64,000 nucleotides of DNA from Okamejei kenojei. Its lineage: Eukaryota. The notes below the pieces were generated by a model. That model had not been told where the DNA came from. It saw only the letters and a program-made list of their open reading frames with translations, and ran no database searches. Of this stretch, positions 2,255 through 62,265 are shown in pieces (position 1 is the first letter of the stretch; each line of letters starts with the position of its first letter). Location: the NCBI GenBank assembly GCA_035221665.1, contig CM069135.1, positions 58,962,001-59,026,000 on the forward strand, given 5' to 3'. A program made the position numbers and the translations under genes.

Positions 2255-4710
2255 GTTGTTGCAGAGGGGATTTTAACTTTCCCACTATACAATGGGAAAA
2301 TCATAGCGTGAAGAGTTCAGATGGGGTGCAATTTCACAAAAGTGTTCAAGGGAGTCTTCTTAAACAGTATGTGGAGGCCCCCACACATGAGAGGGCAACG
2401 CTGAATCTAGTATTGGGAAATTGGGATGGGCAAGTCAATGAGGTGTGTATGGAGGAGCCTTTTGGGACCAGTGACCACAGTTCGATTAGGTTTAAGATAA
2501 TTATGGATAGGGACAGAGAGGGACCACATGTTAAAATGCTCAACTGGGGTAAGGCCAACTTTGAGGGTATGAAAGAAGTTCTCACTCCAAGATGACTGGA
2601 GCAGGTTATTAGAGGGGAAAGGAACATCAGCCAAGTGGGATTTTTTTTAAAGTGTACTGAAGAAAGCTCAGGATGTGTGTGTCCACGTTAGAGTGAAGGG
2701 CAAAGGAAGCAAACGTAAGGAAGCTTGGCTGATGAGGGAAATTGAGATGTTAGTCAAAAACAAGGACGATGCATAGGGCAGGGATAGGCAGCTGGGATCA
2801 AGTGCATCCCTGAAGGAGTTTTGGGAATCAGGGAGTAAACTAAAAAAGAAAATCAGAAGTGCAAAAAGGGACCAGGAGATAGCTCTGGTGGGTAGCATTA
2901 AGGACAATCCCAAAATATGTTATAAATACATAAGGGGGAAAAGGGTAACTAGAGAGAGAGTGGGACCTCTCAGGAATCAAAGTGGTCACCTCTGTGTGGC
3001 GCCACAGATGGGCAATGACCTCAATCAGTATTTCTCCTCCGTATTTACCGAGGATAAGGACAGTAGGACGAAGGAAATCGGAGCAGTCACCAGAAGTGTC
3101 TCCAGAGCAGTCAGGGTTACTGCCGAAGAAGTACTAAAGGTACTGTCGTGTTTGAAGGTAGACAAATCTCCAGGGCCTGATCTGATATATCCAAGGACAT
3201 TGTGGGAAACTAGAGAGGAAATTGCGGGAGCCCTGCTTGAAATTTACGAGTCGTCCTTAAATACAGGAGAGGTGCCGGAAGACTGGAGGGTGGCAAGTGT
3301 GGTACCTCATTTCAAGAAGGACTGCAGGGAAAATGCTGGGAACTATAGGCCGGTGAGCTTAACATCTGTAGATGGTAAGTTACTGGAGAGTATTCTGAGG
3401 ATTAGATATACAGGCATTTGGATGGGCAAGGGCTGATTAGGGATGGTCAGCATGGTTTTGTACGTGGGAGGTCGTGTCTCACAAGACGGGACCAAAAAGG
3501 TTGATGAGGGCAGAGCTGTAGATGTTGTGTACATGGACTTCAGTTAGGCGTTCAAAAAGGTTTTGCATGGCAGGCTGTTCTGGAAGGATAGATCGCATGG
3601 GATCCAAGGAGAGATACCTGAATGGATAGTAAATTGGCTCCATGGAAGGAAGCAGAGGGTAATGGTGGAAGGTTGCTTCTCAGACTGGATGCCTGTGACT
3701 AGTGGTGTGCCTCAGGGTTCGGTGCTGGGCCCGTTACTGTTTATCATCTCCATCAATGATTTGGATGAGAACATACAGGGCAAGATTAGCAAGTTTGCTG
3801 ATGATACAAAAGTTAGCGGTTTTGCAGATAGTGAGGCTGGTTGTGAACGATTGCAGCAGGATCTGGATCGATTGGCCAGGTGGGCGGAGGAATGGTTAAT
3901 TAAATTTAATACAGAGAAGTGTGAAGTGTTGCATTTTGGGACGTCGAACAAGGGCAGGACTTACACAATAAATGGTAGGCCTCTGGGTAGTGTTGTAGAG
4001 CAAGGGGATATAGGAGTATAGGTGCATGGTTCCTTGAAGGTCGAGTCATAGTTAGATAAGGTGGTCAAGAAGGATTTTGGCACTTTAACCTTCATCAGTC
4101 AGAGTATTGAGTATAGAAATTGGGAAGTCATGTTGCAGTTGTATAAGACATTGGTGAGACCACATTTAGAATATTGTGTTCAGTTCTAGGCACCATGTTA
4201 TAGAAAATATATTGTTAAGCTTGAAAGGGTTCAGAAAAGAATTACGAGGATGTTGCCAGGACTAGAGGGTGTGAGCTCTCGGGAGAGGTTGAGTAGGCTG
4301 GGTCTCTATTCCATGGTGCACAGGAGGATGAGAGGAGATCTTATAAAGTTATACAAAATCATGAGAGGAATAGATCGGGTAGATGCACAGAGTCTCTTGC
4401 CCATTGTAGGCGAATCAAGGACCAGAGGACACAGGTTTAAGGTGAAGGGGATCTAATAGGAATTTAAGGAGTAACATTTTCACCCAAAAGGGTGGTGAGT
4501 GTATGGAACAAGCTGCCAGAGAAGGTAGCTGTGGCAGGGACTATCCCAATGTTTAAGAAGCGGTTAGACAGGTACATGGATAGGACAGGTTTGGAGGGAT
4601 ATGGACCATGCGCAGGCAGGTGGGACTAGTGTAGCTGGGATATGTTGGCTGGTGTGGGCAAGTTGGACCAAAGGCCTGTTTCTACACTTTTTCACTCTAT
4701 GATTCTATGA
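2255..4710 (+). mobile_element. CR1 LINE ORF2 remnant (end of APE endonuclease, RT, 3' UTR), degenerate
   Basis: [40 protein letters not shown] and KFADDTK motifs with stops and frameshifts; tail 'ctctatgattctatga'. Confidence 0.92.
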
Positions 4711-4714
4711 CGTG

Positions 4715-5068
4715 CATTTTGACCTCATAGCCAGCGTAGATCAGGTAGTTGCACAGAGTCTTTTGTCCAGAGTAGGGGAATCGAGGACCAGAGGACATAG
4801 GTTCAAGGTGAAGGGGAAAAGATTTAATAGGAATCCGAGGGGTAACTTTTTCCACACAAAGGGTGGTGGGTGTATGGAACAAGCTGCCAGAGGAGGTAGT
4901 TGAGGCTGGGTTTTAAGGAACAGTTAGACAGGTACATGGATAATTCAGGTTTGGAGGGATATGGACCAAGCGCAGGCAAGAGGGACTAGTGTAGCAGAGA
5001 CATTGTTGGCCGGTGTGGGCGAGTTGGGCCGAAAGGCCTGTTTCCACACTGTATCACTCTGAGTCTTT
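4715..5068 (+). mobile_element. Second CR1 3' fragment
   Basis: RVGESRTRGHRFKVKG..GNFF motif and a 3' UTR matching 4400-4710. Confidence 0.85.
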
Positions 5069-5229
5069 TGTGTACTTTGTACGCAAAAACAAATAATTTA
5101 ACTGCACCTAGCTAGGTACAAGTGACAATAAACTATCACCATCATCATCATCAGAGCGACGTGTTTTCCAAACACACTTTGCACAACAAAAATGTCAGAA
5201 TACTTACTTGACTTTTTTATTCAATGTTT

Positions 5230-5371
5230 CTTCTTCTTCTTCTTTCATGTCGCGTGCACAGCCTAAAGTTGTTGGACAACTTGTTCTATTTGATCTTCCG
5301 TTTGTGCACGTCGAGTTGATTACATTAGTCGAAACAGGGCGGACCACGTGAAGGTTGCAATCTTCCACCCC
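5230..5371 (-). mobile_element. 142-bp non-autonomous retroelement: HDV-like ribozyme head, LINE C-terminal codons and (AAG)n tail
   Basis: TSD attcaatgttt (5219-5229) / attcaatattt (5372-5382); minus strand ends ..gaaagaagaagaagaag; internal TEDQIEQVVQQL* with stop at 5263-5265. Confidence 0.8.
5318..5371 (-). ncRNA. Minimal HDV-like self-cleaving ribozyme (predicted)
   Basis: P1 GGGGTGG/CCGCCCT (G1-U wobble), P2 GATTGCA/TGTAATC, P3 ACC/GGT, L3 TTCACGT, vestigial P4 (T-TTCG-A) and J4/2 CTAA. Confidence 0.8.
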
Positions 5372-7149
5372 ATTCAATATTTAATATGTTTAGCGTAGCA
5401 ATACAAAGCAAATAAGAAAAAAAGATACTCCTTCATATAGATGTCAATTTCAACAGCCCGTCAGCAAGTTTTAAAAATTGGAAAGCTCAGAGGGTTTTGA
5501 AGTCCTAGCCATATTGGGTTGCAGTAATGATTCTCGATTACTGCTGTAAGCCTCTCTCCAAAACCTCTGTCACATTGCTTTAGATCCAGACATTTTACTT
5601 CTATTAATTATTTGTCTACTTAGTAATTTAGTAGGCAGATTGGGCAGGTACTTTCCATTTCTCTTCCTTCATTAATGGTAATAACGTAAATAATGTTTAT
5701 AATTTAGAACTCAAAATGAATAATTTGACTTCAGAAAATCTTGAGTTGAGACCTAAAGGCTATTGGCAGCCTAATGGAAATACAGCATAAATCTTCAGTC
5801 ATTACTGTTCGGCACTTTTAAATTAAATAGGCTTGGACTACAAATTGTTTTATTCTGTAAATCTTCCTACATCATTTGGACTGTAAAAAAACTCAAAAGG
5901 CCTACAACAGTACTTTTTAAGCCTTGAGATAATGTAACGAGAGGATAATATATTCCTTCATGACTTGTAGGCAGTAATTCAATTTCAGGATTGAGATGAT
6001 GCCATAATCCACACAAGGTTTCTCCCTTGCTGGAGATGGGGGGGGGTTGTTGAAAGTAAAACATGCTTGCCAATAGTTTTTGAACTAACTCTGAGGAACA
6101 TCTCTTGGTCTGGACAGCTATCAAGTAAAAGTTGTTCCATAGTGTAGCCCGAGGGAAATTTAGCAGCTGCTGAATCCATTGTGTACCAGCCCAAGCTGTG
6201 GATTTTCTATGGGGACTGGTGGGGGGTGAGCTGTCAGGTACCCCAATTGTAACCTTGTGACGTTGGTGGAAGAAGAGCTGAGGGATTGGCACTCTTGCAT
6301 GTAGGAGACTGATGTGGCATGATTAAATATAGGAATGGTTCTAATGCACCACATCCTAAAACAGTAGAATTGTTTCTCTAATATACCCAGCTCACCCCTC
6401 CCACACCTGTGTCCATAATACCGCCAATTTTATTTAAATTAAATAAGCCACACTGACACCAGATATTACAGAGAAGTGTGGAGTGGAACTCATTCTTTCC
6501 TGTACCACTAACTTTGTCCGGGAGGACCCAAGAAATATTGGTCTCAAGTTCTTCCAAATCCTCAAATTGACTTCCACCATTGCTGCAAAATGGTTTTCAT
6601 TCTTGTGGTTCCTCTGTGAAGTGGATGAGAGGAAAGCCACCAAGTCAACGTTGTTAATTATTATCAGACACGTGTACTTGGGAAAACAAGTTACAGACAC
6701 AATTGATAGGCTCAGTAATTAAGCATCCTAAAATCTAATCATGACAGCTGTAACATAAACAGCAGAGCCCAGGTACGTCAGCTACTTATTGTCGTGCTTT
6801 TATGTAAGTGATAAAGAACTGACTATTCATTGAGGAATCGACTAATCTTGCAAAATGACTGATTGCAAGATCTGTCAAGAGCAGAGACTGTGCGGATTGT
6901 TTCCATCATGTGAACCCTCTGGGACATTACCATTAAAATTAATGAATGGAAAATCCCTGGCAATGGTTCAAAATTCCACAAGATGCACTCCATGTATGCC
7001 CTATTGCTGCAGGCAGGGGTCAATTGCAGAAGCACCCTCCATGTTTCAAAGATTTTAGCATTTTGGGGAAAAGGAGTTATTAATCCACTAATCAGTAGTT
7101 GTTTTGAAAAAGGTACAGAAGTGCAACAAAGCGGTAACGAAGATGGCGG

Positions 7150-9916
7150 GTTGTGCAGTCTCAATTCTGGAGAGTTCTGACATGGCTCACAAGTCCAATT
7201 CGTGAACAGCACACTCAAGGGCAATGGGGGCAGATGAAGGTCATTGCTGGCAGCCTTCCTCCTCTCCCTGGCTTTGGTAAGTCGCTGCAGGTGGCGCTCC
7301 TCGAAGCTGCTGGTTGCTGCTGCGCGCCAGTCGTGTTTTGTCCCTGGCGCAGGCTTCCAGTTGCTTGGACGCAAGACCACAATAGTGGAGATGGTCCTTG
7401 ACGTAATCTTTGTACCGCTTCCTGGGATGCCCACGGTTCCTTTATCCCTGGGAGAGCACGCCGTAGAAGACCTGTTGAGGCATACGGGTTTCATCCATCC
7501 TGATGACATGCCCAGTCCATCGGAGCTGTGCTTTGATGATCATTGCCTCGATGCTTGTGAAGCTGGATCTGTCCAATACTTCTAGGTTGGGCACTTTGTC
7601 CTGCCAGCGAATGCCCATGATGGACCGTAACGAGCGCATATGGAACCTCAAGTTGACGGATGTGATTCCTATACAAGGTCCACGTTTTACAGCCATAGAA
7701 CAGGCTGGAAAGCACAACTGCTTTGTTGACTTTGAGTTTAGTTGACAGCTTGATGTTGTGGTGGTTCAACACTCGTGTACGCAGTCGTCCAAGTGCTTGA
7801 CTGGCTTTGCTGATTCTCGTTGAGATTTCCTTGTCCAAGGAGCCATCAGATGATATTACACTTCAAGTAATTGAAGGAGTCAACGGCTTTCAGCTGTGTG
7901 CTGTCAAGGGGCACACTTGAGGGCGGTACTGCAGTGTCTGGAGCTGGCTGGTGGATGACTTCCGTTTTGCTTAGGCTGATTGTAAGACCAAAAACCTGTG
8001 CTGCTTCCGCAAATTTGGTCACATTGAACTGGAGGTCAGACTCCTCGTGAGCCATGAGGGCGCAGTCATCCGCAAAAAGGGCTTTGGGAATGAGCCGCTC
8101 GTGTGTTTTGGTTTTGCGTTCAGTCGTCAAAGGTCAAAGAGAGATCTGTCCAGACGGTACATTAGGTACATGCCAAGGTCGAGGTCCTGGAGGGCGTGAC
8201 TCAAGACGCAGCTGAAGAAGAGTACAGGGGACAGAATGGCTACCTTGCTTCACTCCATTGGAGATGTTGAAAGGTGCAGAAGTTTTGCCGTTGACCAGAA
8301 CTGTTCCTGTCATGCCATCATGGAAGAGGTGGATGATCTGGATACATTTTCTTGGGCAGCCGAGCTTGTGAAGTATAAAATACAGAGCCTCCCGGTTAAC
8401 CGTGTCAAAGGCATTTGTCAGGTCGATGAAGACTGTGCAGAGGTCCATCTACTGCTCAATGGATTTTTCCTGTACCTGTCTCACCGTGAAGATCATATCA
8501 GCAGTGCTGCGACCAGGTCTGAAACCACACTGAGACTCCCGCAAGCTTGCTTCCATGACCTTATTGATTAGGCAGTTGAAGATGACACGGGTTAGTATCT
8601 TTCCAGTGACGGACAACAAGGAGATGCCTCGGTAGTTGCCACAATCGCTTTGCTACCTTTGTATTTGAACAAGGAGACAACAGTAGCATCCCTGAATTCA
8701 TCAGGCATACTTTCTGTCTCACAGATGCTGGACAAGATGTTGTGGAAAGTGTCTCAGGACCTGCTGCCTTGTAGAGTTCATTATGGATTCCGTCCATGCC
8801 TGATGCCTTGCTTGTGCTGGTTTGACTGGTGGCCTTCTTGATCTCTTCCAAAGATTGGTGGAGGTCAAGGTCGTCAAGTGTTGGCTTTTGTGGGATCTGG
8901 TCGAGAGCGACTGGGTCAACGGCAGAGGGTCTATTGAGTAGGTTGGCGAGGTGTTCTCGCCATCTGTCTGAGATGCTGCTTTTATCCTTGAGCAGGGTTC
9001 TGCCGTTAGCTGCAAGGAGGGGGGGGGGGAGGATATCAGCTTGGGTGGACCATACACAACCTTGATCAAGCTGAAAAACTGCTTAGAGTTGTTCGTGTCT
9101 GCGTAATGTTGAACTTTGTCAGCTTTACTCGCCCATCAGCTGTCTTGCATCTCTCGTAGCTCCTTCTGTGCCTTGCTCTGCAGGTGTTTCAAGCGATTAT
9201 TTTTAGAGTGGAGGATACGTCGTTCTGCCACTCGATGAATGCCTTGTGTTTCTCCTCCAGGAGTTTGGAAATTTCATCATTGTTTACATCAAACCAGTCC
9301 TGGTGCACTCGCTCCTTGCGTCCAAGCACATCCTTAGCTGACTGTCATCAGCTCTTTGAACTGGTTTCACTTTTCAGTTGGGTCGCCTGTCAGTGGTCCA
9401 TAAGCAGTCAGCTTGTTGACTGGTACTTCTCAGTGACGTCTGGTCGTTTGAGCATCTCAGTGTTGAATGATGCACGGAGATGCTTAGATGTCTTACGCTG
9501 TGGCAGAGGGATGTGCAGGTTGAAAATTGACCTGACCAATCTGTGATCCGTCCAACACTCAGCTCCCCGCATGGCCTTAGTTATCTTAACGTCACGGATG
9601 GTCCGCCTGCGGACAATGACATAGTCGATCAGATGCCATTGCTTGGACCTGGGATGCATCCACGTGGTCTTGTGCTTGTTGGCCATTCTGAAGAGGGTGT
9701 TGGTGAAGGTGAGGTCATTTTCAGCACACATACTCAGGGGGACTAGACCGTTTCCGTTCACCTTTCCAACGCCGTGAGGCCCCATCACCTGTTCCCAGCA
9801 CGGCTGTCACTGCCAACTCTGGCATTGATGTCCCCTAGCAGGAAGAGCTTGTCGCTGGCAGGGGTTTGCTTCACTACAGTCAAGGCCCTCATAGAACTTC
9901 TCTTTGACCTCATCAC
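7150..9916 (-). mobile_element. RTE (BovB-like) LINE, 5'-truncated and degenerate
   Basis: Endonuclease motifs GPHGVGKVNGNG, TWMHPRSKQWHLIDY, TDHRLV; RT motifs FIDLTNAFDTV, GVKQG, LFADDCAL; C-terminal QLRWTGHVIRM. Confidence 0.92.
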
Positions 9917-60800: not shown

Positions 60801-61323
60801 GTAACTAAGTTTCCACACAATTTATTCTCGGTCATGTATATTTGCCAGTTTTGAACTTTAGTCTTGCATTGTTAATGTCTCTCTTGCAATTATATTTTTG
60901 ATACTAAATATGTTTCATATATACTTAACCATTATCTCAATGATTGTTTAGAATATTAGTGATTAATAAAGTTTATTTTAGTTGTTTTTCTCTCGTTTTC
61001 TTCCTGGGTATTGGTTTTAGTGCATTGGTAGCACGGGATATCGCAAGTGCATAATTAATGCTGTGATGTAACACGTTTCCAGCTTCACCTGGACTGTTTG
61101 ATGTTGAAAATGCTAAGGAGCAACACTCCTTTCATGCCTCCCATTATTGTTGCCTACTTAGTTTAGCAATGAGCAAAGATAACAGAGACTAATTTGCTTC
61201 ATATTGTTGATATTAAGTCCAACTGCTGGCAGCTTTGATTTCTTTGCTACATTGTGATTATTGCAACTGTTAGAATCCAGAATTTTTGGTCAACCTTTGC
61301 ATGATTTGCATCTTGTTCACCAG

Positions 61324-61518
61324 TCTCCAGAAACTTCAGAAGATGAGGCTGCTGATAAAGAAAGTGAACCAGAAGTGGAAAGAACATCCAGTGGAAGAGT
61401 GCGAAGGAGCTCTGCAAAGTTGGCTGCCTACCACCTACATGAAATAGTAGCCGATGAACTTGCTCGGGAATCGCCTCGGAGGAAAATCCAACGTGACCTG
61501 GTACCGGATGATGACAAG
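61324..61518 (+). CDS. ZNF512: ZNF512 coding exon 11 (..SGRVRRSSAKLAAYHLHEI..QRDLVPDDDK)
   Basis: accag|..AAG|gtgaaa; conserved linker motif. Confidence 0.9.
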
Positions 61519-62265
61519 GTGAAACGACAAGGCGTAGGGAAATGCCATCCTTGCAGCTACTCTGTCATGCTGTCTAAAAATTTAGAATGTGTCATTTTAC
61601 CAAAATATGTCATCCCTCTTGGGAATTATATTCACAGATCTCCAGAATATTTGCTCTTTGTGCCACATGACTGTTCTGTAACTCTGGAATGTGTGTGTTG
61701 ACAAGCTACTGGTAAAATAATGGAATTGGACAACCACTATGAACTCTGAGCTGCAGTCAGATAAATAAATAATATTTCACTTTTATAACCCATCAGATCA
61801 TGACCAATTCAATTATGTTTTGAAATGAATGGGCATGATTTTATGGGGGTAGAAAGTTTGTCTATAAATGTTCCCTGTTTTATACGCATGTTCCAAAATT
61901 TCAAGTAACATCGATACATTCAATGTACTCGTGTTTTAACTGTCATGCTTTCATAATCGGTGAAATTTCTGAGCGCAAAATTATACATGCTGTCTCCTGA
62001 AGTTGGTCTATTCACAATTTTTTTTTTTTCCCCAGTTATTTTTGTTAGAACAAAATTCTGATGAAAATATGAGAGAGAAGTTCATGGTCAGGCTCTTTGC
62101 ATTAGAGATGTGTTATATATTTATTAAAATTATGAAATGTTGCTCCTTTGCAAACAGGAAAATAATTTAATCATCAAAACAAAGCATGCATCAGATATTT
62201 CATATTTAAAATGTGTGACTAAAAGATTTTTACACCTACTTTTTAAACTTTTGTCTTTTTTTTAG

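Follow-up and report, generated by a model that had tools for sequence, protein, structure and literature searches.

What kind of element is the 142-bp repeat on the minus strand of the 64-kb stretch of Okamejei kenojei DNA analysed here (the window), from which parent does it descend, and how might its RNA acquire a fixed 5' end? An earlier note on this DNA had taken it for a promoter-less, SINE-like family that is headed by a minimal HDV-like ribozyme and moved by a borrowed reverse transcriptase (RT). The rest of the window is dense in what we take to be CR1/L2-, RTE-, Tc1-, DIRS- and gypsy-like fragments, and a plus-strand reading frame at 61258-61701 includes an exon-like stretch that may resemble ZNF512/ZNF512B. 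The boundaries of the element and the parts of its head are as follows.

5230..5371, minus: whole non-autonomous element, 142 bp, with boundaries common to copies that have unrelated flanks
5372..5382: target-site duplication copy adjoining G1, 11 bp, 1 mismatch against its partner copy
5219..5229: target-site duplication copy adjoining the tail, 11 bp, 1 mismatch against its partner copy
5318..5371, minus: predicted 54-nt P4-less HDV-like ribozyme, from descriptor and shuffles, covariation and a sub-threshold Rfam match
5365-5371/5336-5342, minus: P1, 7 bp, with a G1-U36 wobble
5363-5364, minus: J1/2, 2 nt
5356-5362/5318-5324, minus: P2, 7 bp, with P2' ending at 5318
5353-5355/5343-5345, minus: P3, 3 bp
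5346-5352, minus: L3, 7 nt
5350/5335, minus: P1.1, the single pair C22-G37, added here to the earlier parse
5329..5334, minus: short linker in place of P4, with no hairpin predicted
5328, minus: C44, candidate catalytic cytosine and first base of J4/2, a C in 79 of the 86 sampled copies described below

That the element starts exactly at G1, directly against an 11-bp target-site duplication (TSD) with one mismatch, was borne out in the window copy. In the 2.76-Gb genome, we found 9766 exact matches to a 3' anchor and 9563 to a 5' anchor, and from the overlap of the two (44/92 in the first 15 Mb of contig 1) we estimate ~20,000-22,000 copies, which is likely a lower bound; the family is dispersed, as had been supposed. 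Among 759 candidates, the best 40 are 97-100% identical to the element, and the 30 of these that we fetched all start at the G1 position, with unrelated flanks. For a closer view of heads and TSDs, we used the first 90 of 100 listed 3'-anchor places, a sample biased towards young copies, wherein the head is present in 86, truncated internally in 2 and missing in 2. In the 86 head-bearing copies, the TSD (mostly 11-12 bp long) adjoins G1 in 51, ends 1-4 nt before G1 in 17 and runs into the element in 3; none was found in the other 15. There are at least two subfamilies, told apart by nt 8, by a J4/2 of either CUAA or CGAA and by a 2-nt difference in mid-element. Moreover, contigs from four sequencing runs, of four organisms, span the element and diverge in sequence at the G1 boundary, which means that the family extends beyond this assembly.

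With regard to the head, the HDV double-pseudoknot parse proposed earlier for the minus strand, with its G1-U wobble and its C at 5328, was recovered with 18/18 pairs and a 7-nt linker ahead of J4/2, and a strict HDV descriptor gave a single match in the window, at this site, and 0 matches in 100 dinucleotide shuffles. The parse displays a nested double pseudoknot (P1/P2/P3/P1.1), G1 at the 5' boundary, U20 and G25 in L3, and a C that opens a C-N-R-A J4/2, as befits an HDV-like ribozyme. By analogy with C75 of HDV and C57 of CPEB3, as described in PMC4836649, C44 may have the catalytic role, and a C occupies the equivalent place in all four parsed LINE families. The best Rfam match, HDV-F-prausnitzii, covers exactly 5318-5371 at 16.3 bits (E 9.3), and because this is far under the gathering score (16.3 and 14.4 bits versus 44), Rfam alone would not call a ribozyme here; the Rfam model contains a P4 region that is missing from the element. 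All 18 pairs and the core bases are kept in 36 of the 86 sampled copies. The U50 in P2' of the window copy is rare, and since C is found there in 82/86 copies, the family normally has a G14-C50 pair. The 2-nt J1/2 is short, yet it is common to all four LINE families; for the Agam-2-1 ribozyme, PMC4908430 describes little activity with a 1-nt spacer, with a 2-nt J1/2 near the lower limit there. From this structural model, the head is predicted to self-cleave just 5' of G1.

We next turn to the parent. An autonomous-type LINE that shares both ends with the element was indeed found in the same genome (copies L211, L214 and L224). This partner LINE is ~3.04 kb in length, with a single ORF that encodes an APE endonuclease and an RT and is without an RNase H. 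In copy L211 (G000:C7, about 50578296-50581337, minus), a GGGGTGG start is followed by APE, RT and the same tail as in the element, with an 8-bp TSD, and L214 and L224 are similar near-complete copies. Among 20 close copies examined, the ORF is broken in all. The route to the partner ran from a tail pattern that excluded the head to locus L110, then to 5'-truncated copies, a database relative and the near-complete copies; it was the older-tail pattern that led to the partner, whereas neither the young-subfamily-tail pattern (27 matches) nor the head pattern (2280 matches) retrieved a long partner. A search with PF14529, with the best 30 loci considered, was rejected as a source, as it led to an unrelated two-ORF LINE with no match to the element (L129/L150, G000:C2, about 28.22-28.23 Mb, with a 1276-aa open frame that is possibly intact).

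As to the clade, the closest intact database relative (P0004) is a 1019-aa APE and RT protein with no RNase H, whose RT region is 77.5% identical to that of copy L214, and many relatives are ~1000-aa APE and RT proteins, likewise without RNase H, on 3.2-3.4-kb contigs. This is the architecture by which Vingi is defined in PMC13708176, namely a compact single ORF with APE and RT, no RNase H and a length of about 3 kb, and the partner LINE shares it. In a quick RT tree, whose row labels were assigned by us and in which a named Vingi reference is absent, the partner groups with P0004 (support 99) inside a 58-row clade (SH-aLRT 96), apart from the RNase-H-bearing, CR1-like and RTE-like rows. Searches of the PDB, cluster names and Atlas yielded no named Vingi protein. 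Hence, of the 'Ingi/Vingi- or RTE-type' RT previously suggested, we would keep Vingi-like, a clade name that rests on architecture, and drop RTE, from which the position in the RT tree is far off. Separately, loci L181-L183 give ~80% protein identity between the partner LINE and a sequence annotated from the teleost Synaphobranchus kaupii (P0002), a likeness for which horizontal transfer is a possible explanation.

Aligned to this LINE, the element divides as follows.

5301..5371, minus: segment derived from the partner LINE's 5' end (5' UTR), 67/72 nt being the same as in LINE copy L226
5280..5300, minus: deletion junction, enlarged by short duplications of a CAAATAGA-like unit, from alignment to the LINE ends and L095
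5230..5279, minus: LINE 3'-end segment with the last codons, stop, short 3' UTR and tail, 83-89% identical to LINE 3' ends (copies L211, L213, L214, L224 and L230)
5263-5265, minus: stop codon of the LINE-derived 3' segment
5230-5244, minus: (AAG)5 tail
5253..5310, minus: predicted 8-bp stem of the 5' module (5303-5310) with the 3' UTR (5253-5260), from an MFE fold

Because its ends are common with those of a 3-kb LINE, the element is, judged by sequence, a bipartite internal-deletion derivative that comprises the first ~71 and the last ~50 nt of the partner; the ~20 nt in between are short duplications at the junction, a reading for which older short forms of the element, such as L095, were also used. 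It has multiplied as one unit, complete with TSDs and a simple-repeat tail, and it shares its ends with an autonomous-type LINE whose ORF it has lost by deletion, both of which characterise a bipartite non-autonomous LINE (SIDE). Thus, while the 'SINE-like family' of the earlier note is upheld as a dispersed short family, it is not a new sort of SINE and belongs to a category already described (PMC5786205). Separate deletion products, independent of the 142-bp element, are L096 and L110, with the latter (~430 bp) joining the same head to 112 codons of the LINE C-terminus and the same tail, flanked by an 11-bp TSD. The terminal peptide TEDQIEQVVQQL* is readable as had been reported, though its frame has an internal stop in 29 of 86 sampled copies, and as a true ORF remnant we reject it as mostly accident: only the last few codons and the stop correspond to the LINE ORF end. 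The 8-bp stem, which joins nt 62-69 to the 3' UTR and has both arms also present in the full LINE, may have a function; MFE folding of the whole element is otherwise unremarkable (z = -1.4), albeit plain MFE cannot represent a pseudoknot.

Several side observations concern these same segments. An ATG at nt 47-49, where J4/2 meets P2' (window 5263-5325, minus), is in frame with the LINE ORF in L224 and, in the young subfamily, starts a 20-codon frame that closes with the LINE stop. In the window copy, a stop codon follows the ATG directly, and in the older subfamily the ATG is not in frame; it is probably incidental. L230 is a copy of the parent LINE with a young short element inserted in its 5' part. 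In 7 of the 50 LINE-bearing loci that we examined, the body is preceded by an inverted 5'-proximal segment, either the ribozyme head or a nearby 5' segment (L155, L161, L217, L225 and also L170, L175 and L216). The inversion begins at nt 72-76 in 4/7 of these, >2 kb is skipped in 4/7, and in L155, L170 and L175 the inverted segment and body lie inside one TSD with >2 kb missing. Small as the numbers are, such inversions hint at a 5' module kept close to the target site.

The proposed pairing is further upheld by covariation in related LINEs. We scanned 13 own-genome and 80 metagenome loci, for which clear parses were obtained only with L199, L204, L208 and L266; L198 and L202 did not parse as an HDV fold, and most of the other scanned loci are without a 5' end. 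In L199 and L204 (both from the same genome) and L266 (a metagenome contig), an HDV fold with 18/18 pairs lies just upstream of the ORF, and relative to L226 there are two-sided, compensatory changes at 6, 8 and 6 pairs, respectively, including P1.1 C-G to U-A. Swapping strands between families leaves 12-15/18 pairs, and 0/1000 shuffled windows reached the family fold score. These cross-family pairs were counted from descriptor parses, as MAFFT misaligned J4/2 and P2'. Among copies within one family there is almost no covariation, with U5-A32 in the LINE against U5-G32 in most short copies. The L199, L204 and L266 families all keep a long P4 (25-42-nt segments with hairpins), and the loss of P4 is consequently special to the lineage of the element. 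The L199 and L204 families start at or near G1, with unrelated flanks, and these two sister families in the genome have 17 and 10 exact core matches, nearly all continuing into LINE sequence; no mass short derivative of either was seen in this genome. These two (loci L199, L204 and L431-L457) are further Vingi-like families, of low copy number, each headed by a P4-containing HDV-like fold of its own.

The explanation we favour, with a probability of about 0.75, is a fusion of LINE ends in ~20,000 copies whose head self-cleaves and which the LINE protein inserts in trans. Transcription would occur by read-through or from a Pol II promoter near the head, and Mg2+-dependent cleavage 5' of G1, with C44 as general acid, would then free a unit-length RNA from the longer transcript, with the fold perhaps shielding its uncapped 5' end. 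The LINE protein would recognise the 3' UTR/(AAG)n tail, and probably the 5' module as well, and likely insert the RNA in trans by target-primed reverse transcription from the (AAG)n tail. For the cleavage and release steps, we infer from the HDV-like ribozymes of L1Tc/NARTc, SIDERs and R2; in vitro cleavage has been reported for the equivalent heads of NARTc and SIDERs (PMC3185411, PMC4035085), and activity for minimal ribozymes that lack P4 (bioRxiv 2023.06.13.544163). A uniform start at G1 would, however, follow from an internal promoter too, and herein lies the main rival, by analogy with Pr77: given the same origin, the 5' end might be set mainly by an internal Pol II promoter at G1, with the pseudoknot being protein-binding or protective and cleavage slow or dispensable. 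In line with this are the 77-nt L1Tc head, described as both promoter and ribozyme (PMC3383444), the view that bipartite LINEs are Pol II transcribed (PMC5786205), the inverted heads from nt 72-76, which suggest a 5' module held near the target, and a U29C sub-lineage (8/86 copies) that spread nonetheless with its first P3 pair broken. Still, we regard this rival as unlikely, given that the J4/2 C, U20, G25 and P1.1, which serve catalysis and not shape alone, are kept in four divergent families.

Conceivably, the ribozyme is real in the related LINEs and crippled here by the loss of P4, such that the head is passive and full length merely reflects a short template. Short templates rarely truncate anyway, and the CpG in L3 is no better conserved than the downstream-stem CpG outside the ribozyme (4 versus 8 changes, p 0.25); it does decay less than the linker CpG (4 versus 22, p 0.0002), with the copies not being independent. 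Yet if the head were passive, the TSDs would enclose upstream host sequence of varying extent, whereas they in fact adjoin G1, and the partner LINE is itself P4-less with 18/18 pairs, so that we consider a crippled head quite improbable. Least credible of all, to the point of being nearly negligible, is the view that the element is an ordinary Pol III SINE or parasitises an RTE element, in favour of which the short length, the simple-repeat tail and a B-box-like TTCGA motif could be cited. A Pol III SINE has a small-RNA-derived head with A and B boxes, and here the head is the 5' UTR of the partner LINE itself, ARAGORN finds no tRNA in the element, in agreement with the tRNA-less head noted before, and the A/B-box matches are at chance level (1564/2000 shuffles are as good), on which basis a Pol III promoter was rejected. 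For the RTE variant, the partner RT is far in the tree from the element of the window that we take to be RTE-like.

Set beside known systems, the closest in origin are the hedgehog Vingi-1_EE derivatives, included among the bipartite non-autonomous LINEs of PMC5786205, which likewise consist of the 5' and 3' ends of a compact single-ORF, RNase-H-less LINE and likewise include several independent deletion products. NARTc, RIME and SIDER (PMC3185411, PMC4035085) are also short and dispersed with an HDV-like head from nt +1, and release from co-transcripts and effects on host mRNAs have been proposed for them, as here. In contrast, theirs is a 77-nt Pr77 head with P4, their partners have an RNase H, their hosts are trypanosomatids and their cleavage has been demonstrated, while that of our element is predicted from sequence. 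The R2 SIDEs (PMC3414825) similarly fuse a 5' ribozyme to a LINE 3' end via internal deletion, although they are rare and rDNA site-specific, with an RLE-type partner and a much longer ribozyme. Minimal P4-less HDV-like and theta ribozymes share the missing P4 and a very compact double pseudoknot, but are described almost only from gut phages, beside tRNAs (bioRxiv 2023.06.13.544163), and not from a retrotransposon in a 2.76-Gb genome. The core numbering of CPEB3 (G1-U36, U20, C22, A23 and G25) equals that of the element, as does a P1.1 of one G-C pair beside U-U (PMC4836649); CPEB3 differs in having a P4 hairpin and a single intronic locus.

The design of a ribozyme head with a LINE tail is known from trypanosomes and flies, and the element is a compact version of it and no new class. 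What appears new is the presence, in very many copies, of a minimal ribozyme, with cleavage predicted from its model, in a genome of vertebrate size. Our literature searches gave no description of a Vingi ribozyme or of this family; since Vingi-1_EE was first named Ingi-1_EE, the Vingi-ribozyme link may already be published under 'Ingi' or in supplementary material. PMC5786205 leaves open whether ribozyme heads are the reason that bipartite elements are made by RTE, Ingi, Vingi and R2 only, and of these four Vingi alone has no ribozyme listed therein. Our findings, supported by covariation, add a Vingi-like clade to those with HDV-like ribozymes at the 5' end. Going further, one might suppose, though tentatively and with the odds against it, that ~4,000-8,000 structurally intact, active P4-less ribozymes, dispersed by a Vingi-like parasite of 140 bp, cut host pre-mRNAs in which they lie in sense, and that ribozyme and 5'-3' pairing together make a minimal template of ~120 nt gripped at both ends; a LINE protein with such a grip would explain the recurrent internal deletions and the inverted heads. 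The ~20,000 natural variants of a P4-less ribozyme make it possible to ask whether ribozymes on the sense strand of introns are purged or are tolerated. Vingi-1 already serves for inserting genes by way of RNA, from templates that carry both a 5' and a 3' UTR (PMC13708176), and the family described here represents the smallest natural cis set.
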